DNA of 64,000 nt from a virus, in the IMG/VR virus record IMGVR_UViG_3300045988_132927, positions 13,484-77,483 of that record; one strand, given 5' to 3'. The first letter of the stretch is position 1. The number at the start of each line of letters is the position of its first letter. Both the position numbers and the translations under genes were made by a program. The notes beneath the pieces were generated by a model, which searched no databases, was not told where the DNA came from, and saw nothing but the letters and a program-made list of their open reading frames with translations. Positions 12,508 through 61,711 of this stretch are shown in pieces.

Positions 12508-15500
12508 TGGCTTCACAGTATAGTATTTTAAGGCAATATGCCCCGTATGTTAGTCCTTACAACATAGATCTTGTTAAGGACGTCATGATGTACAAACAGC
12601 AGAAGGTTGATGCTGCTCGTGAAAAGATCTATACCCAGGTAGATTATCTTATGGGTCAAGAGATAGATAAGCCTGAAGCCCGTGCTTATATGGAAGATAA
12701 GATGTCAGGTGTGATTGCTAACATCAATCAAAAATTCAAAGGCGTGGATCTTTCTTCTGATGGTGTTACGAGAGCCATACAAGGAGAGATCAGTTCAGTG
12801 TTGGATGATACGGTCATTAACGCGATTGCCGGCACAAAAGAAGGCAAGAGGGTTATGAAGGAAATAGAATCTATAAAACAGAATCATCCTGAACTTTATT
12901 CTCCTATTAATGAATGGCATGCTTTGGACCCTTATTACAAATGGAGGTCAGATGGTAAAGCAGGATCAAGGTTGGGAGGTCTTCATTATTCTCCTTATGT
13001 CGATTATACTAAGGAGATAAATAAGCTGGTCAGTGATTTTAGGAAAAACAACGAAGGCAAGAAGATTCAGACAACAGAATATGATGTTAAAGGTAATCCT
13101 ACTGGTGGAATCATAGAAGTCAACGTAGATGAGCTTACTGATTCCCAGATAAGGAATTTTGTGTCTGCTAACTTATCTGAAAACATGAGGAATCAGATGA
13201 GAATAGAAGCATCATACATGGCAGCTACCAATCCGGTGTTCAGTAATCCAGATTTGGTTAGTCAATACATTGGGTCTTATGTCGAAAGATACGATAGGCA
13301 CATAGGAGCATTGGAAGCAAAAAAGAAATCAGTAGGGGATAATAAGGATATTATTGATCGTATTGACAGTCAGATACAGGAAGCTAAAAATCAGAAAGCA
13401 GAAGCCAAGAGGGAGGCAGATATGATAATAGCTTCATCAGATCCGGTAGCGGCTGCTAATTTTGTTGTTACCAATAATCTTTTCGATAAGATGACTGATG
13501 CATGGAGATACGACAATACAAGTTTTGAAAGGAAGAAAGATGATCTTTATTTTGCAAGGTTGGCAGAGGATAGGGCTCAGCAAAAGTTTTTGACTGATAA
13601 TGCTAAGTCTATGGTTGAAATATCGTTGGCAAAAGAGCAACTTGCACAGGCTAAGATTGAAACCGAATACATGCGTACTTACGGTTCCAAGATGGGCACT
13701 GAAAGCTCATCCGGAGGCACAAGAGGAGCAGGCGGTGTAGGAGTGCCGATGGCTCCTATGGACGGGCCTACGGCTATCAATTCTGGAACGGGTAAGATAG
13801 GATCTGTTAATTTGGCTAATATCCCTTATGAACAACTCACATCTTCTTCCACAGAGCGTAGAGCAAATTTATTGAAATTATATAATTCATTATCTCCTAC
13901 AGACAGAAGTAATATCGTTGCAGCATCATACGAAGAAGAAAAAACTGACCCAGGATTGTATGCTAATATGACTCCTGAAGAACGGATATATTCTTATTTA
14001 AAAAATAATGGAGGTCAGAAAAACGGATATTTTGGACAAGGAAATAACAGATTGTCTGAAGCTTATGATGCTTTACTTCTTTCTGATTCTAAGGCAAATG
14101 GAGCTACAAAGGCTATAAATAACATAACTGATTATCAAATAGATAATATAGTTACTAAAAAAAATAAGGATATTATCAGTAAAGTTCGTAATGCTAAGTT
14201 TATGAAAGGAAATTCTTTTATAAATCTTACCGATACAGATGATAAGGCTGGAGCCTTCCTGCTCGCCACAGCCATAACAACTGGTGTATCTGATGCCGTA
14301 GGGTTCAGAGAATACATGATGGATCCTTCAAGAGGAATAGATATTCTTAGTGCTATATCTCCGTCATTAGGAGCTAAGGTGAGTGCAGGAAAGTTGGGGA
14401 AAAACATATCTGATGCTATTACAAGCGAGAATAATGGTTCTTCTACTGGTACATTGGCTCTTATTAATGGAATGAAGAAACTCAATGGCGATCCTGATTT
14501 TAATATATCAGATTATATGACCATAGATAAGGATGGTGATATAGATTTAAAAGATTATCAGGAAGGTGAACCATTAACTATTACCCAGCTAAGATATGCT
14601 GAGAAAAACAGTAGGGTGTCTGATATGATAGCAGGTCAGATGCAGGATGAGATAAAAATGTCTGTATCTCCTGATCAGATTTCTGATAAGTTATCTCAGT
14701 ATCATTACCTTGATTCTTACAAAAGATACAATTGGAATGCCGATTCACCGGAAAAGTCTTTGCAGAAGGCTCAGTTTAGAAGATTGTCTGGTTACATGGC
14801 AGGAAAGGTAAATAATCTGGATCCTACTGCTATTAATGCCATTAATATGGATGCCGAGATAGATAATGGCACCGTTAGAAGATTCTTGACTGCTCAAGTA
14901 GGTTCCGGTAAAAATTCTTATGTTACAGAAAGGGTTGAGATTACGAATGACGAGCTTCTTAAGGCGGGTATAGATCCTTCGGTCGAGGAGCGCAATTATC
15001 CGGTAGATGGCTACAAATCAAGTTTTGGAACCTGTGATTTTGTAGATACCGGAAAGAAGGAAGGTTATTCTTATGATAAGTATCTTATACGTAATGGCCT
15101 TCCTCGTTTGGCTTCTAAGGCTGATGTTAAGAATGATCTTTATGATATAGTAAAGGTTCATGGTTCTTACCTTAAGCCAGAAGAAATGAATGTTGTTAAA
15201 GCCCTTGTTGATAATTTTATTGACATGTCTGATAATATATCAGTTCAGTTGGAGGGAATGGACGATAGGGGTTCAAGAGAGGTAGCGGTCAATTTCTATG
15301 ACAAAAGGACTAAAAATTCTAAAAATCCTGCATTGTTGTTCTCGGATTTTGTTCCTTTGGATCCAGGTAATGATGAGTATGCGGATTACTGGAATAGCAT
15401 TCACCAGAAGTGTCCTCAGTACTTCTTTGTAAAATACGTGAAGGAGGCTGTTCAAGAACGTCTTGATCAGATGAGGGATCCGTATATGAGAGGAATAAAT

Positions 15501-26149: not shown

Positions 26150-26222
26150 AAACCATACATTTTCATACATTTGTGTGTTCTTTAGTTTTTAGATTTAAGT
26201 TTTTCATGGTATTAGTTTAGAG

Positions 26223-31214: not shown

Positions 31215-31967
31215 ATGGGGTTAGACGATTTTAAAGATGTAATTAGAGTGATGACAAAAGAAGAGTTCGAATCAGCAATCAACGAAGATATTAAATTCGT
31301 TGAAGGAATTAAGCATTTTTTTAAACATGATGATGCTACGAGGGTAATGGAACACGTAAAGTCTGTGTTAGAAACATCAGTGGACTACTACTACCCGAAT
31401 CATCCTGAACCTGAAGCAGAACCTGGAGACATGGGAGAAGTTTCTGATGGATACCATACTTTCAATGAATTGTATCGGTATCGCATGTTGTATAACGCCG
31501 CCTTCTTTAATCTATTAGCCAGAAACGGACAGGTTGAAGTTTGCAAATCAAGAAAGCACAGCGATGGAGAAAAATGCTTCGGTTCTGATGACTGGTTTAT
31601 TGTGATGGCGATCCTACCTACCGGTCAGGTATCTAATCACTATGAAAGCAAATACTGGGATTTGTTTGATGTTCCTGAAAGAGAAACCGCTTTCGAATAC
31701 GATGGCCATACACCAAATGAAGCTGCCGACAGACTTGAAAAATATCTCAAACTGCCTCGTCATGGCATGACATTCGAAAAGGCTTTAGAACAGCTTAAAT
31801 TAGGTCGTAAGATAAAAAGAATCGATTGGGGTAAAAAGTATATCTGTATATTTATTGTAGAATCTGACGTAAATATATTGATGGTAGATACAGGTCAAAA
31901 AGTAGCATCAAATTGGAATCCAACCGAACATGATATTATGTCTAATGACTGGGAGATTGCGGGATGA
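31215..31967 (+). CDS. two-domain protein: unknown N-terminal domain fused to C-terminal DUF2829 (Tad2-like cyclic-nucleotide sponge fold)
   Basis: C-terminal MTFEKALEQLKLGRKIKRIDWGKKYI...DIMSNDWEI matches remembered DUF2829/Tad2 pattern M.F.EAL.ALK.GKKV.R.GW...DLLAEDWEVV. Confidence 0.5.
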   Translation: MGLDDFKDVIRVMTKEEFESAINEDIKFVEGIKHFFKHDDATRVMEHVKSVLETSVDYYYPNHPEPEAEPGDMGEVSDGYHTFNELYRYRMLYNAAFFNLLARNGQVEVCKSRKHSDGEKCFGSDDWFIVMAILPTGQVSNHYESKYWDLFDVPERETAFEYDGHTPNEAADRLEKYLKLPRHGMTFEKALEQLKLGRKIKRIDWGKKYICIFIVESDVNILMVDTGQKVASNWNPTEHDIMSNDWEIAG

Positions 31968-32242: not shown

Positions 32243-32548
32243 ATGTGTGATAAGGAAATTGTTGTATGTGCAGCTATATGGGTTCAAGATCACAAGAACA
32301 AGCCTCACGGTCCAGTAAATATACCATTCGGAACCGTATTTTGTGGATTGAGACACTGTTCCATAATATCGCAACTTGCGGCATACGGAATAGCTCATAA
32401 AAACCGCAGTGTTCAAGGATTTTTGACGAGCAAGAACCGGTTTTTAACAAGAGAGGAAGCGTCTGAACTTGTTAGAAACAATAATCAAGAGATGGTGGTA
32501 GATAGGAATGCCATTAGAGAACAGTTGTATTCAGAAGATTTATATTAG
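32243..32548 (+). CDS. hypothetical protein
   Basis: 101-aa ORF. Confidence 0.4.
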   Translation: MCDKEIVVCAAIWVQDHKNKPHGPVNIPFGTVFCGLRHCSIISQLAAYGIAHKNRSVQGFLTSKNRFLTREEASELVRNNNQEMVVDRNAIREQLYSEDLY

Positions 32549-32565
32549 TGTATTAAAATGTTTAA

Positions 32566-33756
32566 ATGAAACTTGTTGAAAGACATATAGTTAAAGACAA
32601 CTGGTTTGAGGATATATGCCTCAAATCTGGTTTGTTGTACAATTATGTTCTTTACAACATTCGTCAAGGAGTCTTTTCTGGTAACTACTTAAAGGAGTTT
32701 GATTTATCAAACAAACTTTGCAAAGAAAACCAATTTGATTTCAGGAATTTACCTAATCATGTTTCACAGCAGGTGATTAAACAGGTATTTAAAAACATAA
32801 AATCCTGGATGAGATTAAAGAAAGATTTTGAAAAGAATCCTTCGAAATACGGTAATCATCGTCCTCATCTTCCTTCGTATAAGAAGGGCAAGAAACAAAA
32901 CATGGTTGTTTTTACTAACTGTGATTGTAGGATAAAGGATGATGGTTATATCCATTTTGTCAAAAACACAATTAAACCGATCAAAACAAATGTAAAGAAA
33001 GATGAATTAAAACAAGTTAGAATCATACCTCAAGCCACCTGTTATGTAGTAGAGGTAGTTTATGAAAGAAAGGAAATTGATCTTGGTTTAGATAAAGACA
33101 ATTTTCTTTCGATTGATTTAGGATTGAATAATTTATGTTCATGTATTAGCAATGTAGGATTAATTCCTTTCATTGTAAACGGACGGATTATGAAATCATT
33201 TAATCAATGGTACAATAAGAAGAAAGCTAAGTTGATGTCTTTTGTTGGTGATAGAGGATCTTCAAATAGGATAAGAAGAATCACTTTGTTTAGAAATTGT
33301 TGGATAGAAGACAAGTTGCATAAGATAAGCAGATATATTGTCAACTTCTGTAGATCAAACAACATAGGAACAATCATCATCGGATTAAATAAGGAATGGA
33401 AACAGGAAATCAATATTGGTAGGCGAAATAACCAACATTTTGTTTCTATTCCTCATTCAAAGTTAATAGATAAGATTGTTTACAAAGCAAAGTTATTAGG
33501 AATCAATGTTGTTATTCATGAAGAATCCTATACATCAAAGATAGATCATCTTGCTTTTGAACCTCTAAAGAAACAGGAATCCTACTTAGGAAAAAGAAAG
33601 AAACGTGGATTGTTTCAAAGTTCAATTGGAAAACTGATCAATGCAGATATTAATGGATCAATTGGAATAGCAAGAAAAGTAATTGGTGATTCTTTTATTG
33701 GAAAGATAATCGATAGTGGATTTGTGTTTAATCCAATTAGAGTAAATACTTTGTGA
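32566..33756 (+). CDS. tnpB: TnpB-like (IS200/IS605 OrfB family) RuvC nuclease homolog, compact (396 aa), lacking the canonical CxxC..CxxC zinc finger
   Basis: RuvC-I SIDLGLNN; region YKAKLLGINVVIHEESYTSKID aligns with TnpB YKxxxxGxxVVxVxxxxTSKxC; RuvC-III NADINGSIGIARK (cf. DADVNAAINI); no Cys between RuvC-II and RuvC-III. Confidence 0.7.
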   Translation: MKLVERHIVKDNWFEDICLKSGLLYNYVLYNIRQGVFSGNYLKEFDLSNKLCKENQFDFRNLPNHVSQQVIKQVFKNIKSWMRLKKDFEKNPSKYGNHRPHLPSYKKGKKQNMVVFTNCDCRIKDDGYIHFVKNTIKPIKTNVKKDELKQVRIIPQATCYVVEVVYERKEIDLGLDKDNFLSIDLGLNNLCSCISNVGLIPFIVNGRIMKSFNQWYNKKKAKLMSFVGDRGSSNRIRRITLFRNCWIEDKLHKISRYIVNFCRSNNIGTIIIGLNKEWKQEINIGRRNNQHFVSIPHSKLIDKIVYKAKLLGINVVIHEESYTSKIDHLAFEPLKKQESYLGKRKKRGLFQSSIGKLINADINGSIGIARKVIGDSFIGKIIDSGFVFNPIRVNTL

Positions 33757-33829
33757 TACAAGGTTGAATCTAATAAATAAAATGAGTAATTTTAATAACA
33801 TTTGTATTAACTAAAAAAAATAAAACAAC

Positions 33830-34180
33830 ATGGGATTTATAATCAGAAAGTCAATATTTTATGATATGATGGACGGCAATCAATTAAAGTATGAATTTGA
33901 CAACAGGGATTTAGATCATATCACATTTAAAGGTGATGGTAAAGAATCTTTTTCATTTAACAGAGCACTTGTTGAAAATTTAATTGAGACATTTGAAACC
34001 ATGCATGATATATATTCCGATAATTACAAGCTTAAGGTTTATACTGGTAATTGCATAATTCAATTGAGCGAAGATTCAAAGGACTTAAGTAAATCCTTTT
34101 TTGACGTATATGATAAAGATGAAATGAAAATGATATACGCAATAAATATCAGTATCTTGAAAGAAATGTTTGTCATATGA
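33830..34180 (+). CDS. hypothetical protein
   Basis: 116-aa ORF. Confidence 0.4.
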   Translation: MGFIIRKSIFYDMMDGNQLKYEFDNRDLDHITFKGDGKESFSFNRALVENLIETFETMHDIYSDNYKLKVYTGNCIIQLSEDSKDLSKSFFDVYDKDEMKMIYAINISILKEMFVI

Positions 34181-35168: not shown

Positions 35169-38100
35169 ATGACATCAACGTGTATTATTAAAAGAGATAA
35201 TAAAAAGAAAGTTGTTTCTGTCTCTACCAGATCAGGGGACAGGTCTATGTTGTTTGATAAAATAGCATCTATTCCTCTTATGGAGAACAGAGAACGGGCT
35301 ACTACTGTTTTTAAAACCGTATTTTCTAATAAGTTCTTAAAGGCTTTTGGCGACTGGAGAAAGAGAGTGCCTATCAACAAACCGGCTTATAATAAGGTAA
35401 AATCCAACATCGATCTTATTCCGGAAGCCTATAGAGAAAGGGTACTGGATAAGGCTTCTAAGATGAGTAATCCTGTTCTTGTGTCAAAATCAGATGCACC
35501 TTATGAAATCCAAGAATCGGGCTTTGGATTTTACAGCCAAGATCTGGGTGATAATATTATATTGGTGGATGCTATGGTTCCGTCAAGTATTTCCGTACCG
35601 GAAGAACCAGGAATAGACGCCGGGCAGTATCTACAAGATACCATATCTTCAGACTTCACTCCCGTATCTATGGTACAGGATAAGGGTGTTAATTATATGG
35701 TTATAAAAGACGGTCTTAAGATATTTAGCCCAGAGGAGTTACCAGAAACAGATTCTAATCCTGTGGGTGTAACGTATCAGACCGGAGAGCCTCGTTTGTT
35801 TTTCATGAACGATCGTAGTCAATTATTTGAAGATTACGGAGAAGCTCTTCGCTCTGGCGGGAATGATATTAGAATAGGATTCTTATCAGGCACCGTTCAA
35901 GAATCTGCCGTGGATGGCGTGGCAGACATTACTTACAAGGCTGGAAAGTATGTTCTTAATAATCCAAAATCTTTTATACCGGTCATGACCGCTTCTGCTT
36001 CCACTTCTTTATCAACAAAAGGTGGTATAATTAACTACCTTATAAAGAAAGGTCTTTTGTCCGGATCTAAGATATTCGATCCTGAAACAAGAAGCTATTA
36101 TCTTACAGGAGAAGGTCATACAGGACAAATTAGACTTTTCAATTCAGCCTTATCCTACACTGAGCTCCGTAATCATTTTGGTTCCGATGTTTCCATGAAC
36201 GACCAAGGTATGATAACCATAAGCTCGTTGGATAACAGTAAGGTAACGATGAGACTCGCCACCGGAGGAACGGAAAGGATTAGTAGGGAACAGATAAAGA
36301 ACGATCTCAAGTCAGGAAGATACAATGAATTGGACGCCAAGTACGATCATTTTGATGCGCTTGTAGTTTCATTCATATTAGAAGACAACGATCTTTATGC
36401 TGACACTAAAGCTAAGATCGTATCAGATTATAGCAGGCAGGAACGTGATCAACGAAATTCTATTGTCGAGATACTGAAAACTCTTGGCGTTAGTGTCATA
36501 GGTATGACCGACTATATAGAGAAGTACCAAACCAAATACGGGCATGAACCTTCTGCTAAGGCATTGGCGGATATTGCCAATAACGTAATAGCAGTTGGTG
36601 AAGATGCTACTTTATCTGATTTAGTAGAAGAAACAGCCCACTTCCTTGTAGAGGCATACAGAGATCAGAATGCTGTTGAGGCTGTTCTGCAAGATGTAGA
36701 AGGTACGGAAGAGTGGAACCAGTATGCAGGTCAGTATTATAATACATACGGTAAGGTATATGAAGGAGCTGAGCTTGATAATGCTGTTAGGAGAGAAATT
36801 CTTGGAAAGATCCTCGCCAGGGAGATGCAGACCGGCACAGCACAGGCGCCGGTAGAGCCCACCTCCTTCCTGGGGCGCGTCCGGCAGCTTCTCTCTGGAA
36901 TAGTAAACTGGCTTAAATCAGCTTTATCAACCCAAAGACAAGATTTGAATAACGTTATTAAAAACATTCGTGATCTTGCCATTACTGACATAGATAAAGG
37001 ATTTGACACTTCTCTGTTAAAGGATAATGACTTTACATTATACTCCCTTTCTTCTATGAACAAGAACAAGTTTCTTGAGTCTAAGATCAGATCGCTAAGA
37101 AAAACATTAAGAGACTTACGTCAGATAAGCTCTGATAGGGCTGTAACTACGTCTATGACCCTTGCTCAGCTTAAGACCATAGAAGATAAGATAAATAAAG
37201 TAGAGACCGAGATAGACAAGAATGAGATGGCGGCTGCCATGAACAGCATGATCTCCACAGCCGAAGCTCAGGTCAGATACTTAAGCAATGTGGTGAACAC
37301 CATCCTTCATGGTGATACCAAAGACGGTAAGCTTCACTTCAATACCAATGATCGAAAGAACGTAGATATTATCAACAATCAGGTTCTTCCGATCATGAAC
37401 GATCTTCGAGGATATATCCGTAACAGAAGTACCGAATTTGATGAACGTGAAAAGCAGGATTATACAAATAGGATCAATACCGTCATTGCCGACATCAATG
37501 GTATTCAGTCTGATATTAAATCAGTACAAGACCTTGATGAAAGTACGTTGCTTGATAAGTTAATGAACGAACTTCATGTGCCGGCAGATAAGGTAAAGAG
37601 AGTAAAAGAATTTTTTGACAAGGTTCAACACGATGTTTCTTGGATAAGTAGGTGGTTCGGTATATTAGAGCATTCTTCCAGTCCGTTCAATAACGCTCTT
37701 GGAGCTATGATTGCCAAAGACAATTACAATGCGATGGTGAATGCCCAGCCCGCCATATCCGACTTCCTGACATATGCGAAAAAGCATGGTTTTAACAAAT
37801 CTGAATTTGAAAAACTGCTTCAGAAAGTAGACGGCAAAACTTCTAATTACCTTCGTAGTGCTCTTGATATGGCTAAATACGATCGTAATAAGAAGCTGGC
37901 GCAGATGCGAGCGTTTGCGACTGCCATGAACATAGAGATATCAGAAGAAGAAATTGGTGATGTGGTTGACAATAACCGTAATTACGTATTTAAAAGAGAA
38001 GCAGTTGACAAGGATGGAAATACGGTTACTGAAAACGCTAAATTCAAACCATCGTCTGATAGAGTTAATACCGATATTTTTACCATCGAGCAGGAAAAGA

Positions 38101-44158: not shown

Positions 44159-44877
44159 GATCGCTCCTCCTTATTTTTAGATTCTGCCTCTTCGAGTATG
44201 CTGATCACCTTATCAACAATATCCGAATCAGACATTTTCTCAATAAAAACATCCATTGCCTTAGTTATGTCATTGGCTTCTTTTTCTTCAAAAGCTATTT
44301 CTCCACCGGTAATAGCATCAGATAATGATGTAGATAAGTGTCTTATCTTATCAATGCTCATAAACGTAAATGGATTACCACCTTGACCTCCACCCATTTC
44401 TTTCATGATCTGATATCCACCTGAGATAAGTCTGCCTGATGTCGTGGCCAAGGAGGATACGATTAGGGACAGTACCGCCGCTTCCGTCCGCTCCTCGGAC
44501 ACACCCCTCGACCACACGGCTGCCCTTATAGCGCCGGCCAGATCGTCTATGTATGGCATGAGGCAATCTTCCATCGCTTGTGTTATATCAGCTATAACCT
44601 CACTACGCTCTTTATTTATGTAGTAGATAGAAGCATTGTACCTCTTTATCTCTTTGTCCATATCATTCAAAAATCGTTTGACATTATGTTTGTACATAGG
44701 ACCACCCTTAATCACTTCCTTCAGCTTAAGAATGTAATTATAAGCCTGGTCGTTTACGAACAACGTCATGGTTTCAACCGTCGAATGAAGCGTGTTAAGA
44801 CTGTTAAGAATCTTATCTAAATTGTTTATCAAATAAGCTTTTCTGGCTTTTGCCGCGTAATTAATCATCGTATTCAA
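44155..44877 (-). CDS. hypothetical protein
   Basis: 240-aa ORF. Confidence 0.5.
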   Translation of the reverse strand: MNTMINYAAKARKAYLINNLDKILNSLNTLHSTVETMTLFVNDQAYNYILKLKEVIKGGPMYKHNVKRFLNDMDKEIKRYNASIYYINKERSEVIADITQAMEDCLMPYIDDLAGAIRAAVWSRGVSEERTEAAVLSLIVSSLATTSGRLISGGYQIMKEMGGGQGGNPFTFMSIDKIRHLSTSLSDAITGGEIAFEEKEANDITKAMDVFIEKMSDSDIVDKVISILEEAESKNKEERS

Positions 44878-45403
44878 ATTTTAGATTTTCAAGTTCATGT
44901 ATTTGTAACTTAAGAGACTTAATTAAATCCGTTCTCTGTTCCTCTGCATGTTTTAAAGCCTCTTCCTTGCTTTCAAAAGCACAATCCCCTATCTGATAAG
45001 GGGTGTAACGACCAGGAGTGTCGGCTAATAAAAGACCACCACAATCTTCTATTCTGGCTTTTACCTTTCTTATTTTCCCATCTTTTAGACACATGTCCGT
45101 AACCCATACGAATTTACCATATAATTTATCATACTCTTCTAATCTCTCTTCTTGCAATTCATACCATTTAGGCTTAGGAAATCTTAATGTGAATTTAACC
45201 TCAGTATCTTTTTCTAAGACATTAATATCGTATGCTTCCGGCCACAGCTCTTTTATGCTGTCTTCGTCTTCGGCATACGCTACAAGTATGAATGAATCAT
45301 CGGATTCACCACTACACCAATATGGATATTTTATAGGCCATTTGACTGGACGGTAGTCGTTATCGCAGTCGGATTTTTTAATGTAAAATCTTGTTCTAAT
45401 CAT
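44861..45403 (-). CDS. hypothetical protein
   Basis: 180-aa ORF. Confidence 0.5.
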   Translation of the reverse strand: MIRTRFYIKKSDCDNDYRPVKWPIKYPYWCSGESDDSFILVAYAEDEDSIKELWPEAYDINVLEKDTEVKFTLRFPKPKWYELQEERLEEYDKLYGKFVWVTDMCLKDGKIRKVKARIEDCGGLLLADTPGRYTPYQIGDCAFESKEEALKHAEEQRTDLIKSLKLQIHELENLKFEYDD

Positions 45404-46527
45404 GATTCTTTTATTCTTTTAAGTATATGTTCAATCACTTTAATAGTCCACCCGTTTCCCAACATCTTGTACTGTTGGGTTTCGCTGCATTCCCATTTAT
45501 ACCAATCTGGTACAGTCTGTAACCTGGAGCACTCTGTAGGGGTTAATCTTCTTATTCTGAAATCGCCATGTAATGTTCTCTGTATGATAAAATTGTTTCT
45601 ATCATATGAATTACAAGATGATGTTGGAGCCTTATCTTCATGAAATCCACCTTTGTTAAATCCTCTTGGTATTTGTAAAATAAGATTATCTTTCTGAACT
45701 GTTTTAAGACCAGATTCTCTACATGTAGGTTTTTCTGGATTCCTACCTCTCATTGCTACACAAATAAGATCGTACATGTATTTACCCTTTACGGTAACAG
45801 TATTGGATTTTTCATCTTTTGTTTTAATATTAGCTCCATAATAATCCCCCTTGTCGTGATTTCTTTTCAAGTGAAAAGTTAAATTGTTTAAAACTTTTTC
45901 AGATAAGTAATATTTTTCATCTACTTCATATTCCGCTATATCACTTATAGTCAAACCTTCGTCTTTAGGTTGAGGGATAATTCCGCCTTGAATATTAGTC
46001 CAATAAATACGTTTCCTGGTTTGAGCGGAAACAAGCGCTGAATTAATATGATTGCCTTTACACCCTATAGCATCATCAAATACCAGCTCCCATTTCTTTC
46101 CCATCTTAACGTTCTCAAGAAGAAACAATACCTCGGGATTGGTTTTTCTTGCATCATTCAAAATACGGATAAACTCCCAGAATAAGTAAGACTGACCGGA
46201 AAACTCAAATCCTTGTTTTTTTAATTCAAGATACTCATTAAGTGATTTGATTTCTATTCCTTCTACGGTAGACAACCCTTTTCTTTTTCCAGAAAAGGAC
46301 ATATCCGTACATGGGCTGCCGGCTAAAATAAGATCTATGTGTCCAAGATCTTCTACATTCAAATCCCTTACATCTCCTACTTGTATAGTATTAGGGAAAT
46401 TTAATTGCGTTTGTTTAATAGCAAACTTATCTATTTCTGATGCATAATATACTTCAGGTGTGATCCCTATTTCTTTTAGCGCTATTTGACCACATGACAT
46501 TCCGTCAAATAAACTTAACACTCTCAT
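45400..46527 (-). CDS. DNA (cytosine-5)-methyltransferase; start probably at Met26 of track ORF (track end 46602)
   Basis: motif I LFDGMSCG, motif IV GSPCTDMSFSG (PC), motif VI LLENVKM (ENV), motif VIII QTRKRIYW (QxRxR). Confidence 0.8.
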   Translation of the reverse strand: MRVLSLFDGMSCGQIALKEIGITPEVYYASEIDKFAIKQTQLNFPNTIQVGDVRDLNVEDLGHIDLILAGSPCTDMSFSGKRKGLSTVEGIEIKSLNEYLELKKQGFEFSGQSYLFWEFIRILNDARKTNPEVLFLLENVKMGKKWELVFDDAIGCKGNHINSALVSAQTRKRIYWTNIQGGIIPQPKDEGLTISDIAEYEVDEKYYLSEKVLNNLTFHLKRNHDKGDYYGANIKTKDEKSNTVTVKGKYMYDLICVAMRGRNPEKPTCRESGLKTVQKDNLILQIPRGFNKGGFHEDKAPTSSCNSYDRNNFIIQRTLHGDFRIRRLTPTECSRLQTVPDWYKWECSETQQYKMLGNGWTIKVIEHILKRIKES

Positions 46528-46531
46528 GGCA

Positions 46532-46840
46532 TTATACACATTTTTCAATTTTAATTGATTTTGATGATAGATACATATTCCATGTTCCTCTGCCTCTGTC
46601 ACCTTTTTCGTTTTGTTTTTGGATTGTCAAGTACAGATCTCCGTCTTCACATACTTCAACTTTTTTCAAGAAGCCTATCATTTCATCTCCTGTTTCGTGT
46701 AAAATACGGATCTTATCTCCTTCTTTTAACCCATAATTGGAATCAAAGTATTCTTTTTTGATTCTATCAATATTGTCTTTATGATTTTTTATAGCATAAA
46801 GCTCGTTTCTTAATAAATAATTTAGTTGTTCTATTGTCAT
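46532..46840 (-). CDS. hypothetical protein
   Basis: 102-aa ORF. Confidence 0.4.
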   Translation of the reverse strand: MTIEQLNYLLRNELYAIKNHKDNIDRIKKEYFDSNYGLKEGDKIRILHETGDEMIGFLKKVEVCEDGDLYLTIQKQNEKGDRGRGTWNMYLSSKSIKIEKCV

Positions 46841-55634: not shown

Positions 55635-56237
55635 TTAACTGTTGTACCCTTCTTTGATAATCGAATTTCTACCGGTAGATACCGACTGTCGAAGATCGTC
55701 ATGTACAGAATCTACCGTAGAATACTTGTTTCTGGTTGTAAAAATCACTTCCAGCATCTCCTTGTAATCACCTAAAGCTACTTCGTATCTCGGATCCACT
55801 TTGGCTTTTCTTTCAGCCTCGGCATTACTTTTAGCCAGTTCTCGATCAAGAAGATCTTCTTTGATTCGGTCAGCAATCATATCAAGTTCTTTTTTAATAA
55901 CTTCTCCTGCTGCCCGAAGTTGACCTTCTACGTCACCAAGCTGGTCTTGGACGGTACCTATTTCTTTCTTTAGACGATCGTATTCGTTAATCATACCCAT
56001 ATCACCTGCATAGCCGGAAAAGTCCTTGATTATTTTGGTTCCTTCTTTAAGGAGCTCAATGACTCGTCTTTTACGTTCTCTGCTTATTAAAGACGGAAGA
56101 CGATAATTCATATCCGCCACCGCCTTATCATGTATGGAGTTGATTAAAAACATCTCTCTTTCATCCCCTGCAAATTCAGTAAGAACCAAAAGGAACTTAC
56201 TTATCAGGTATTCGTTTTCTTCTACTGTTAGTCTCAT
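55635..56237 (-). CDS. hypothetical coiled-coil protein
   Basis: 200-aa ORF. Confidence 0.45.
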   Translation of the reverse strand: MRLTVEENEYLISKFLLVLTEFAGDEREMFLINSIHDKAVADMNYRLPSLISRERKRRVIELLKEGTKIIKDFSGYAGDMGMINEYDRLKKEIGTVQDQLGDVEGQLRAAGEVIKKELDMIADRIKEDLLDRELAKSNAEAERKAKVDPRYEVALGDYKEMLEVIFTTRNKYSTVDSVHDDLRQSVSTGRNSIIKEGYNS

Positions 56238-56252
56238 GGTTCTTATTTTTTT

Positions 56253-57386
56253 TTAATACAATGACTGTTCTTCTTTTGTCTCTTGTTCTTGTTCCTGATT
56301 GTCCGTAACATCTTCCACAGTATAGAGCTTGGGCGGCGTCGGCGGCTGGTTGGGGTTCACGAACTTCGTCCCTCCCTCCCCGTACATCCATCCATGCCCC
56401 GGCAAGATCTCTGGGTGGATTGTATTAGTAAGCTCTTCCATACTAACTTGCCTTACCTTCAGTATATGATGAAACACCAGTCCGGCTGTCCTGAATGATG
56501 TTTTGTTTTCAGTTTTAAACCTATCAAGAGTCTGATACCAATCTTTCCCAAATATCATATACTTATCCAGCCCGTACCTACGAGGATTGTGCAAACCTAT
56601 CATTAACGTACATAACTGACCCAGCGTATCAGACTGGTAAAAATCAGAAAGACGCGGAGGCTGCTCTTGTGGGCTTTTTATCCTTCCTTCTATCTCTCTG
56701 TTGAATTGGGATATGATGAGGAAAAATATGTTTTTATATACTAATTTAGCTTCGTTCATAACCGCCACCAAATCATCTATAGCCGACTTAGGATCTAACC
56801 CCATTCTTTTTATCAAAGCAATATGATCGACTTTAAATATTATAAGACGTTTATCTTTGTGTTTGGTAGCTATATGATACACAGCCGCCTCAAACTCTTT
56901 TACCGTACACGGAGCATCGATGTATATTATGTTATTTCTGATTTCACCTTGAAGGATTTCAAACATCCTCATCTCTTCTACCGTATTAGAATCTTGCCTT
57001 CTTAATATTTCAGGAGCCCTCTTTTTCATATCCTGGCTCATTCTACGAAGAAGAAGATCTTGAGGATTCATTTCGAACTCGCAATTAACAAGAAAATAAT
57101 CTTCTGCTTGCGGGTTGATCATCGGATTCATCACATTTTCCAATATCTTTTGGGCCACATACGATTTACCTACAGATGGCCGGGCTCCTATGGCAATAGC
57201 ATGCTGAGGGAAAATACCTCCAAGCAAAGCCTCATCAATATAATCGTATCCGGTTTTAGCGGGGATAAGCTCTCCCCGCCTGTATTTCAAGATATTCTCA
57301 TACGCCTCTTCCATAACTTGTTTAGAGGTCTTGAATATCCTTCTTATATCTATCCTATTTGCTATCTCCTCTTGCATTTTTGTCAC
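56253..57386 (-). CDS. DnaB-like replicative helicase (RecA-fold C-terminal domain)
   Basis: Walker A GARPSVGKS; ISQFNREIEGR resembles DnaB H3/arginine-finger motif. Confidence 0.6.
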   Translation of the reverse strand: MTKMQEEIANRIDIRRIFKTSKQVMEEAYENILKYRRGELIPAKTGYDYIDEALLGGIFPQHAIAIGARPSVGKSYVAQKILENVMNPMINPQAEDYFLVNCEFEMNPQDLLLRRMSQDMKKRAPEILRRQDSNTVEEMRMFEILQGEIRNNIIYIDAPCTVKEFEAAVYHIATKHKDKRLIIFKVDHIALIKRMGLDPKSAIDDLVAVMNEAKLVYKNIFFLIISQFNREIEGRIKSPQEQPPRLSDFYQSDTLGQLCTLMIGLHNPRRYGLDKYMIFGKDWYQTLDRFKTENKTSFRTAGLVFHHILKVRQVSMEELTNTIHPEILPGHGWMYGEGGTKFVNPNQPPTPPKLYTVEDVTDNQEQEQETKEEQSLY

Positions 57387-60168: not shown

Positions 60169-60398
60169 ACTCTTCTTGTGTTTCTAACCAGTATAGGCAT
60201 TGTTACATTAACATTCTTGCCATATTTCTCATAAGATATGAGTATGCATATTGCATACTTATCCCCTATTTTCAAATCTTTCGATAATCTTAATCTTGAC
60301 CCCCTTTTGATGTTAATAAAATAACCACCAAAAGGATTGATACATATCGGTTTTACAATTTCCACATAATCTCCTTTAGGAATAACAATATCACTCAT
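60165..60398 (-). CDS. hypothetical protein
   Basis: 77-aa ORF. Confidence 0.35.
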   Translation of the reverse strand: MSDIVIPKGDYVEIVKPICINPFGGYFINIKRGSRLRLSKDLKIGDKYAICILISYEKYGKNVNVTMPILVRNTRRV

Positions 60399-61711
60399 AT
60401 TACGAATCTTTTAGACATTTCCTCTGCAATATCATATACAACCGTATGATCCTCTTCATTGTATGGTTTATTGATATTTAATACTCCTTTTCTCACTTTG
60501 AACTTCTTATCTTTTCTAAGGTGATTCAACATACCTTGTTGGAATACGCAGTCCGCCTTTTCAAGTGCTATACTGTCTTCTGTCCATTCTTTCAGCGTAT
60601 ATCCTTTGCTACTCGTGCTTTTTGGAGAAAAGTTCATAATACGTGCATCAATCCCATACCATGCTTTAACCATTCTTCTTTCAGCTTCTAATTGAAATGC
60701 GTATGATTCCCATATTCCCCCTGATTTAAAGTCGAGAATAACCACTTCTTCCTTCTCCACTTCTCTTACCTCCTTCTTCGGATCACCTTTCTTAAACTGC
60801 CCTGTGGCCCTTTGATACACGGCTCCAAAATAACCTTCTTCTTTGTATTTGAATGTCATTTTAACCATCGCATCTATCGGCGTAGCTACCAAATAATCTT
60901 CTAATGATAATATTCTTTCAATCATCATCGGTTTAACCTTATATTCCGAACAAAACTTGGCAAACTTCATAACTCTGACAATCATATCGTCAAGATCATC
61001 TATGCTATTAAAGAACCGATCAAGATTTTTCTTAGATATCTTCAGCTTACCTTCTTGCACTGTCTTAACCACAAAGCTTCGATTTAAGACCATATCTCTA
61101 CCTGTTAGGTACAATCCGTATAAGTAGTGCATGATCGTTCCCTTATCGGCTTCATACTGCGCCACCTCTTCTGGATTGCGACCAAGCATCTTTATCTCTT
61201 GCTTCCATTCCTGAAGTGCTGTCTTATCGTCCACATACCCATCTTTGATTAAGGTTGTTACCGAAGCATATATCTTAGCCGTCCCATCATCCATCTTTCT
61301 TACATAAAAACGATTATCGTCTAATGTCAATCTTACGAATTTGGGGGTCTCAATCTTCTTTAACTCATCACAGATATAAAACGGCTCTAATGTTTCCTGA
61401 TTTTCTGTAAACGGATTCGAATCTTCTTCTCCAGGGTTAGGAGCGGCTTCCTCCGCCGGAGCTTCCGGTTCCTCTCCCTGGACCGGCTCTGGCTCAGGCG
61501 CCGGCTCTTTAACTACTGGAACCTGTCCGCCTCTTTCTGCTATGTCTCTGTTCTTTATTAAAGACATAACCTCCTTCTTCAACTGCTCTGGTGTTTGGTT
61601 AGGATCTGACACCGACATCACAACATCGTTCATTCTAAACAACGTATTTCCTTCTCCTTCTACCATAGGCGCAAACCCTAAATCTGTCAATATTTTTATT
61701 TTCTCTTTCAT
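60395..61711 (-). CDS. hypothetical protein, possible PD-(D/E)xK nuclease-like C-terminal domain
   Basis: EVEKEEVVILDFKSGG resembles E..(I/V)DxK nuclease motif; acidic PEPEP linker. Confidence 0.4.
   Translation of the reverse strand: MKEKIKILTDLGFAPMVEGEGNTLFRMNDVVMSVSDPNQTPEQLKKEVMSLIKNRDIAERGGQVPVVKEPAPEPEPVQGEEPEAPAEEAAPNPGEEDSNPFTENQETLEPFYICDELKKIETPKFVRLTLDDNRFYVRKMDDGTAKIYASVTTLIKDGYVDDKTALQEWKQEIKMLGRNPEEVAQYEADKGTIMHYLYGLYLTGRDMVLNRSFVVKTVQEGKLKISKKNLDRFFNSIDDLDDMIVRVMKFAKFCSEYKVKPMMIERILSLEDYLVATPIDAMVKMTFKYKEEGYFGAVYQRATGQFKKGDPKKEVREVEKEEVVILDFKSGGIWESYAFQLEAERRMVKAWYGIDARIMNFSPKSTSSKGYTLKEWTEDSIALEKADCVFQQGMLNHLRKDKKFKVRKGVLNINKPYNEEDHTVVYDIAEEMSKRFVI

Follow-up and report, generated by a model that had tools for sequence, protein, structure and literature searches.

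Why does a phage of the human gut carry, between two small genes of an operon, a gene for a compact relative of the RNA-guided nuclease TnpB? The question is raised by a 64,000-nucleotide (nt) stretch of the IMG/VR record IMGVR_UViG_3300045988_132927 (positions 13,484 to 77,483 of that record; hereafter the window), which comes from an Epsilon crAss-like phage of the human gut. The gene, tnpB, encodes 396 amino acids (aa), lies on the same strand as its closely packed neighbours and starts, as the original prediction had noticed, 17 nt past the stop codon of the preceding 101-aa open reading frame (ORF); a 116-aa ORF begins downstream at 33830. That prediction, made from the DNA letters, took the gene for a domesticated TnpB. 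Our analysis indicates that it probably belongs to a streamlined, recently acquired IS607-type TnpB/omega-RNA element, and that in crAss-like phages this element most likely plays the part of an RNA-guided homing endonuclease gene. The evidence is given below, beginning with the element itself, and its coordinates are collected in Table 1.

Insertion polymorphism and boundaries of the element

The phage crAssE-Sib (OR575929; PMC11054128) is 98% identical to the window on both flanks of tnpB and lacks exactly 1262 bp, which places the element at window positions 32540-33801. With the junction marked by a slash, the empty allele of crAssE-Sib reads GAAGAT/TTGTATTAACTAAAAAAT, and the occupied allele reads GAAGAT/TTATATTAGTGTATTAAAATGTTTAAATG at the left and TTTTAATAAC-AT/TTGTATTAACTAAAAAAAAT at the right. 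The element had been described as devoid of transposon ends, but this holds only for part of the left side: the right end is conserved and common to TnpA-bearing IS607-type elements, and of the ~58-60-nt full-length left ends the window copy keeps an inner part, the outer portion with the motif GAAWWATTTGATTATTT found in TnpA-bearing elements being missing. A search of the window for orphan right ends returned only a weak match with two mismatches, AATGTTTTTAATAACGT, at 36952-36968 on the minus strand inside a 2140-aa ORF, which is probably due to chance.

The element is bordered by a 10-nt direct repeat, ATTT(A/G)TATTA, that is perfect (10/10) in the sister contig L003. The left copy coincides with an internal segment of the left end and keeps the C-terminus of the upstream ORF (...EDLY*), with a new TAG stop codon at 32546-32548; the repeat may have originated from a microhomology junction or from a deletion after insertion. 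Another sister contig, L004, shows a 34-nt deletion right after the right end (~4235-4260), which deprives the 116-aa gene that follows of its start codon and is bordered by ATTT microhomology; it could be a scar of self-targeting or of slippage.

We found 248 relatives in IMG/VR, and the 80 loci that were fetched and examined represent at least 22 insertion contexts on gut phage contigs of ~80-160 kb, some genomes having two copies of the element. An intact ORF of 389-396 aa is kept in 78 of the 80 loci, and nearly all phage copies end in TTTTAATAAC followed by AT or GT, with the one-base variants TTTTAGTAAC and TTCTAATAAC in a few. Including the crAssE-Sib case, seven pairs of empty and occupied alleles were recovered, with AT at the left junction and AT or GT after the right end. 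The window itself has empty sites for four other contexts, near 26194, 35169, 44865 (-) and 56236 (-). This polymorphism, the many sites and a conservation of the element above that of its flanks (see below) are hallmarks of an active selfish element, and they contradict the view of tnpB as a domesticated phage gene.

The left flanks end in [A/G/T]GAT in nine independent contexts and in AGAT in six of these, and AGAT is therefore the likely target-adjacent motif (TAM). At the other side, 13 of the 22 contexts have a downstream ORF (50 aa or more) whose ATG or GTG start codon consists of the terminal dinucleotide and the G that follows it; two further contexts have, within the right end, an ATG that continues in frame into the downstream gene. 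Since the start codon is regenerated or supplied by the right end, the neighbouring gene is preserved on insertion. The internal ATG (ATG-AxT-AAT-TTT-AAT-AAC, window 33782-33799) is also present in L011, L014 and L071 and is in frame in several contexts, where it would add MNNFNN- to the downstream protein if the native start was displaced. A model of ectopic homing, in which the right flanks of different contexts would be similar, was considered and rejected, for these flanks have only RT(G/T/A) in common.

The TnpB protein and its predicted omega-RNA

Profile searches bear out the classification of the 396-aa protein as a compact TnpB-type RuvC nuclease. It matches NCBIfam NF040570 (guided_TnpB) with 148.1 bits (cutoff 100), PF01385 with 57 bits (cutoff 30.5) and PF07282 with 30.2 bits (cutoff 26.3), the Pfam families OrfB_IS605 and Cas12f1-like_TNB among its matches, as well as PHROG 506, annotated as 'transposase'. 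The absence of the C4 zinc finger, a usual though not constant feature of TnpB and also part of the original prediction, was confirmed: all cysteines lie between residues 18 and 262, the last being C262, the stretch from the YTSK block to NADIN contains no CxxC...CxxC, and the place of the finger is occupied by the cysteine-free residues 325-358. When the family profile was compared with Cas12f and TnpB structures, their CxxC...CxxC finger fell opposite an equally long cysteine-free segment, and the canonical Glu of the Cas12f structures ('...ME-DL') fell opposite a Gly, G273, at the RuvC-II position that had seemed ambiguous. An exhaustive search gave 4792 cluster representatives at E<=1e-3, of which 1119 reach E<=1e-30. 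When 37 representatives (36-50% identical) were aligned with the protein, D184, G273, E320 and D361 proved invariant; all have NADxN as RuvC-III motif and none has the zinc finger.

An AlphaFold2 model (predicted local distance difference test score 90.1, predicted template modelling score 0.85) places G273 at the end of strand 269-274 and E319/E320 at the end of strand 314-319, and suggests what stands in place of the zinc ribbon: a small beta-hairpin formed by residues 343-351. The closest solved folds found by Foldseek are AsCas12f, the ISFba1 and ISDra2 TnpB proteins and the mimivirus Fanzor2. This arrangement agrees with published work. Altae-Tran et al. (2023; PMC10691335) described TnpB proteins (RIIr) in which the RuvC-II Glu is replaced by Gly and offset by a Glu on beta-5, as in RuvX, within a 'derived' NADXN clade where some branches have no zinc finger and some rearranged branches are virus-specific; this rearranged configuration is presumed active (PMC10691335). 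Yoon et al. (2023; PMC10711439) reported a related 'Ealt' signature in TnpB and Fanzor. With RIIr and Ealt the window protein shares a Gly in place of the canonical Glu, NADxN, and an invariant Glu that lies ~47 residues past the Gly and closes the next core strand; this Glu, E320, fits the alternative-Glu arrangement (PMC10691335). Unlike Ealt, where the Glu lies six residues before the first CxxC, the window TnpB has no CxxC, and its RuvC-I is DLG, unlike the DPG of Fanzor. The loss of the zinc finger and the RuvC-II Gly are thus clade-wide traits that were already catalogued, and are no sign of decay or inactivation. The ratio of nonsynonymous to synonymous substitution rates (dN/dS) between the window tnpB and 21 other phage copies is 0.05-0.18, indicating strong purifying selection on the protein. 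Judging from these sequence features, TnpB is most likely an active nuclease, and the earlier suggestion of an altered, TldR-like nuclease did not survive: a dead nuclease of that type was rejected because the putative catalytic triad D184, E320 and D361 is invariant and the locus is polymorphic and present at many sites.

The original prediction had also placed a guide RNA at the 3' end of the coding region and in the tail behind it, and covariation now supports this. An alignment of 33 distinct 3' ends gave a structure of eight helices, which overlaps the final ~145 nt of tnpB and runs through the right end including the AT. In the proposed structure 96.9% of the paired cells can pair, against 30-55% in controls with slid partners; 69 cells are changed on both sides (7-19 in the controls), and the covariation score is 0.275 (0.04-0.09 in the controls). 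None of 500 shuffles reached the observed pairing and covariation values, and several of the compensatory pairs lie within the coding region. At gathering thresholds Rfam returned only two tRNAs from the window, and at permissive thresholds only a chance miRNA match in the omega-RNA region. The caattgga repeats that had been pointed out in this segment do occur, at 33623 and 33659, and fall partly in helices 1 and 2, but they reflect a codon-level S-I-G repeat and not a repeat element.

By analogy with the IS607 reRNA architecture (PMC10711439, 10.1101/2023.11.20.567912), the guide is predicted to start at 33802, directly after the right end. In the empty allele of crAssE-Sib, AGAT is followed immediately by the first 17 nt of this guide. 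At each insertion the guide would be read from the adjoining sequence on the right, and it varies by site.

Loss of the transposase and the evidence for homing

No tnpA was found in the 64-kb window by tblastn, as had been noted before. To place the element we scanned cellular genomes with an alignment of eight sequences, which yielded 80 loci from cyanobacteria, Asgard archaea, H. pylori, Hallella and others. A serine TnpA of the IS607 family abuts tnpB on the same strand in 17 of these loci (NF033518, 164.6 bits, cutoff 110), and a Y1 TnpA occurs in one (L085) and in no phage copy. The window TnpB is 40% identical to that of an IS607-type element of H. pylori (L145). The elements of Hallella (Prevotellaceae) have the right end ACTTTTAATAAC+GT and the left-end motif GAAATATTTGATTATTTG, which recurs in full-length phage left ends, for example as GAATAATTTGATTATTTT in L011. 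In Hallella mizrahii and H. absiana (L157 and L160, 2290-4213) the IS607-type element has the same terminus, TTTTAATAAC+GT, as the phage elements. This sharing of ends hints at the host range of the phages or at an exchange of elements between host and phage.

Among the phages, the contig L071 (IMGVR_UViG_3300045988_093114) has a serine tnpA at 2417-3001 that overlaps tnpB (NF033518, 167.7 bits), and an identical tnpA is present in six other Epsilon crAss-like contigs (in the L163-L169 set). The copy found in these seven contigs is an autonomous two-gene element, while the published phage description names only TnpB 'transposases'. In L002 (MT835500.1, 3600-3700) a remnant of ~30 aa from the C-terminus of tnpA lies directly upstream of tnpB, and this is an intermediate stage of transposase loss. 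The window copy, in turn, having no tnpA, is a non-autonomous IS607 derivative and not a complete member of the family. It has also lost the outer left end with the common motif and is presumably no longer a TnpA substrate. In the IS607 pathway, as established by experiment, a double-stranded DNA circle intermediate is integrated by crossover at core dinucleotides, one motif is recognised by both TnpB and TnpA, and the end of the scaffold mirrors the TAM, the two being discriminated at position -3 (PMC10711439; 10.1101/2023.11.20.567912). The junctions described here are broadly consistent with this pathway, with AT as the presumed core and not GG, and the AGAT of the target against the element's own ACAT parallels TGGG against TCGG in CboIStron.

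How, then, did such a copy reach several phages? Between phages with 4–30% divergence in the flanks, the window copy itself is 99.5–100% identical. At six sites occupied in several phages the element DNA is 98-100% identical and the adjacent 1 kb only 80-96%, and in 132 of 142 pairs from these sites the element is more alike than both flanks. L003 and L004 show no difference across the element, mismatches returning 30-60 nt beyond each boundary. The same truncated left junction is found in five phage genomes with diverged flanks, which speaks strongly against re-insertion by TnpA; recombination with very short tracts of co-conversion would then have carried the element from one diverged genome to another. 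As far as sequences can tell, short tracts together with an element identity above that of the flanks are the signature of double-strand-break-induced homing. The pattern fits 'non-restorative homing', a category put forward for OMEGA systems (PMC13565253) and demonstrated on plasmids (PMC11870625).

We propose that the element entered an Epsilon crAss-like phage at AGAT, where a spacer of 17 nt separates two small genes. New sites would first be seeded by the serine-recombinase TnpA acting on full-length copies through the AT core dinucleotides; tnpA and the outer left end would then be lost, and a copy such as that of the window would move by homing only. Its tnpB would be transcribed along with the surrounding same-strand phage genes, and the 3' part of the transcript (about 33612-33801) would fold into the scaffold, the next ~16-20 nt of flank serving as the guide. 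TnpB, as a rearranged-type RuvC nuclease without zinc finger (D184, alternative Glu E320, D361), would with its omega-RNA recognise AGAT followed by TTGTATTAACTAAAAA, which are joined only in element-free phage genomes. The occupied allele would be spared, the match to the guide being preceded there by ACAT and the AGAT preceding a mismatched sequence. When both phages replicate in one cell, the empty allele would be cut and repaired from the occupied allele and the element copied in, an outcome that would amount to non-restorative homing, a gene drive. For the stricter claim, namely that this is a free-standing RNA-guided homing endonuclease and a natural gut-phage gene drive that propagates solely by TnpB/omega-RNA cleavage of empty alleles, with a right end that evolved to restore the start codon and leader of the phage gene behind it and so makes insertion nearly cost-free, we see even chances.

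Several observations weigh against this interpretation. The zinc-finger-less clade has neither a solved structure nor a characterised enzyme, and the TAM was derived from only ~16 junctions, an AT-rich motif in an AT-rich genome. The 10-nt repeat is unexpected from a simple serine-recombinase insertion with a 2-nt core, and in one subfamily the dinucleotides of the two junctions differ, with AT at the left and GT at the right. The single-sequence fold of the RNA is no stabler than that of shuffled sequences (z = -0.63), so that it is the covariation that carries the RNA claim. For the omega-RNA, its expression and cleavage, the case is built on sequence and models. Ordinary recombination combined with selection, or hypervariable neighbouring genes, could in principle also produce the identity gap between element and flanks; of these, we regard ordinary recombination with selection as a weaker alternative to conversion triggered by the nuclease.

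Among the other explanations, the one that fares best is that the copies are still mobilised in trans by a serine TnpA, either of the L071 type or from an IS607 element of the Prevotellaceae host, with TnpB acting only to prevent loss of the element (restorative homing) and with occupancy of the same site due to a preference for certain targets. The termini at both sides are indeed common to the Hallella elements and the TnpA-bearing phage copy, the junctions have AT core dinucleotides, and the many distinct sites imply past transposition. We nevertheless consider it improbable. Copies of the window type have lost the outer left-end motif that full-length and TnpA-bearing copies retain, and the identical truncated junction lies in five phage backgrounds with diverged flanks. 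IS607 transposases require both ends, and beyond a short motif they hardly select their target (10.1101/2023.11.20.567912), so that several independent insertions at one and the same base would be improbable.

An IS200/IS605-type element, moved by a Y1 (HUH) TnpA through single-strand 'peel-and-paste' and inserted 3' of ...AT (members of that family insert 3' of a tetra- or pentanucleotide), would have the terminal AT or GT as part of its right end and AT-only palindromes as its TnpA hairpins. Insertion 3' of ...AT without duplication fits the junctions, explaining AT at the left and GT at the right without a mismatched crossover; the cellular relative L085 does have a Y1 TnpA, and small palindromes near both ends (helix 8) have conserved stems and variable loops. 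This reading is quite unlikely even so, since the TnpA is of the serine type in 17 of the 18 TnpA-associated cellular relatives and in the only type of phage copy that has one, the right-end terminus is common to the IS607-type elements of Hallella and H. pylori, and the hairpin candidates are only weak AT-only palindromes.

Domestication would make tnpB a fixed phage gene, with an altered or dead nuclease exapted as a TldR-like regulator or in another role beneficial to the host. The window lacks tnpA, its left end is truncated, the gene is co-oriented and tightly packed in the phage operon, and neither the zinc finger nor the canonical RuvC-II Glu is present, all of which favours this reading. 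Yet a phage of 98% identity lacks it, it occupies at least 22 sites, it is conserved far beyond its flanks, its D/E(alt)/D triad is invariant with the Gly and alternative Glu of a published, presumably active type (PMC10691335), and the guide is the right flank of each insertion and not a conserved target, which makes domestication very unlikely. That the element is a decaying remnant, a dead insertion persisting by hitch-hiking, is suggested by the loss of tnpA and most of the left end, but can hardly be true given 78 intact ORFs in 80 loci, a dN/dS of 0.05-0.18, invariant catalytic residues and compensatory changes that keep the RNA helices.

Genomic neighbourhood and relation to known systems

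Table 1. Features of the element in the window, and sites in the window that are empty and occupied in related phages.
Feature	Position	Strand	Remarks
Probable TAM/target motif AGAT	32536..32539	+	Final left-flank bases; inferred
Core (crossover) dinucleotide AT	32538-32539	+	Empty allele GAAGAT/TTGTATTAACT
Left copy of 10-nt direct repeat, ATTTATATTA	32538..32547	+	9/10 identical to 33800-33809
Truncated left end, 26 nt	32540..32565	+	Alignable to inner part of full-length left ends
tnpB	32566..33756	+	RuvC-I D184 (SIDLG); G273; alternative Glu E320 (HEESYTSK); RuvC-III D361 (NADIN)
Predicted omega-RNA (reRNA) scaffold	33612..33801	+	~190 nt, eight helices; RNAalifold and covariation
Right-end terminus, AGTAATTTTAATAAC+AT	33785..33801	+	TTTTAATAAC at 33790-33799, AT at 33800-33801
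Right copy of 10-nt direct repeat, ATTTGTATTA	33800..33809	+	Same as empty-allele sequence
Predicted guide, TTGTATTAACTAAAAAAAAT	33802..33821	+	Right-flank sequence; position by IS607 reRNA architecture
Empty site, L009 type	~26191-26194	+	At AGAT
Empty site, L070 type	35169-35171	+	Start codon of 2140-aa ORF
Empty site, L011 type	~44862-44868	-	8-nt gene overlap
Empty site, L063 type	~56235-56237	-	At start codon

Two genes upstream of tnpB, a 250-aa ORF (31215-31967, +) encodes a fusion of a WDGH domain (125.8 bits) and a Tad2-like domain (49.1 bits), the latter of the Thoeris anti-defence type, which places the TnpB element in an apparent accessory or anti-defence gene block. Two of the insertion sites, 33802-33832 and 56235-56261 (-), have in common an intergenic motif, TTGTATTAA / A-run / ATAA[AG]AAC[AC](C)ATG, which may be a repeated gene-junction signal of the phage. 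The window further contains a C-5 cytosine DNA methyltransferase gene at 45400-46602 (-; 137 bits) and two tRNA genes on the plus strand, Tyr-GTA at 2916-2988 and Lys-TTT at 3061-3134. crAssE-Sib was reported to carry two TnpB genes; in the window no second one was found, a tblastn search giving only a chance match (E = 0.88) and a 438-aa ORF at 60395..61711 (-) having no Pfam match. Relatives of the proteins P0046 and P0077 at 80% identity bear the NCBI/UniRef label 'Vibrio olivae', and P0046 is found on 86 contigs (up to 155 kb) that resemble these gut phages; the 'Vibrio olivae' assembly is probably contaminated with phage sequence.

The closest known systems are those of the IS607 family (H. 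pylori IS607, ISXfa1, and CboIStron of Clostridium botulinum), which combine a serine TnpA (a MerR-like HTH with a resolvase domain, encoded ahead of tnpB), TnpB and a guide RNA from the right end. Our element resembles them in having a presumed core dinucleotide common to the junctions, relatives in Hallella with TTTTAATAAC+GT and the left-end motif, a sibling phage copy that still has overlapping tnpA and tnpB genes, and a scaffold end that mirrors the end of the target motif, ACAU against AGAT here and UCGG against TGGG in CboTnpB. It differs in that the window copy lacks tnpA and keeps no more than 26 nt of left end, AT takes the place of the usual GG as the core (with GT at the right end of one subfamily), a 10-nt repeat lies at its flanks, the right end abuts and often regenerates the ATG or GTG of a downstream phage gene, and the element resides in the genome of a lytic-type crAss-like phage. 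What is new here, within a known kind of system, is the proposed homing biology in phages, the AT core and a right end that regenerates start codons.

In its way of life the element recalls the homing genes SegF, SegB and Mob of T-even phages and the TnpB-driven spread of insertion sequences (IS) on plasmids (PMC11870625). It is likewise a nuclease gene between conserved genes, polymorphic among relatives, more conserved than its flanks and with short co-conversion tracts, and it is predicted to cut the genome of an element-free competitor in co-infection. Unlike SegF, SegB and Mob, whose target is recognised by the protein, here it would be read by a guide RNA from the junction of element and flank. 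As in intron homing, self and non-self would be told apart by whether the element is present, through the adjacency of TAM and target. With TldR proteins, which are nuclease-dead transcription regulators whose guide is directed against a conserved host promoter, it has in common that it is a phage-encoded TnpB homolog without tnpA; unlike TldR, it keeps the putative catalytic triad, its guide is flank-derived and site-specific, and the gene is mobile.

'Non-restorative homing' of TnpB into co-infecting phages has so far been theoretical, with experimental support from plasmids only (PMC13565253, PMC11870625). The crAss-like phages would add an example from the genomics of natural populations: at several sites both occupied and empty alleles are known, the boundaries are exact, and the window copy, which presumably can no longer be transposed, separates the contribution of the nuclease from that of the transposase. 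These data also correct the plain 'transposase' annotation published for Epsilon crAss-like phages, and link these uncultured phages to the Prevotellaceae through the IS ends that they have in common. A compact 396-aa TnpB without zinc finger, with a probable AT-rich TAM and a predicted omega-RNA, is in addition a candidate genome-editing scaffold. If our interpretation is true, a gene drive by an RNA-guided homing endonuclease with an AT-rich (AGAT) TAM would operate in an abundant group of human-gut phages, and an element that has neither a transposase nor its left-end binding site may possibly exclude element-free competitor phages in co-infection.

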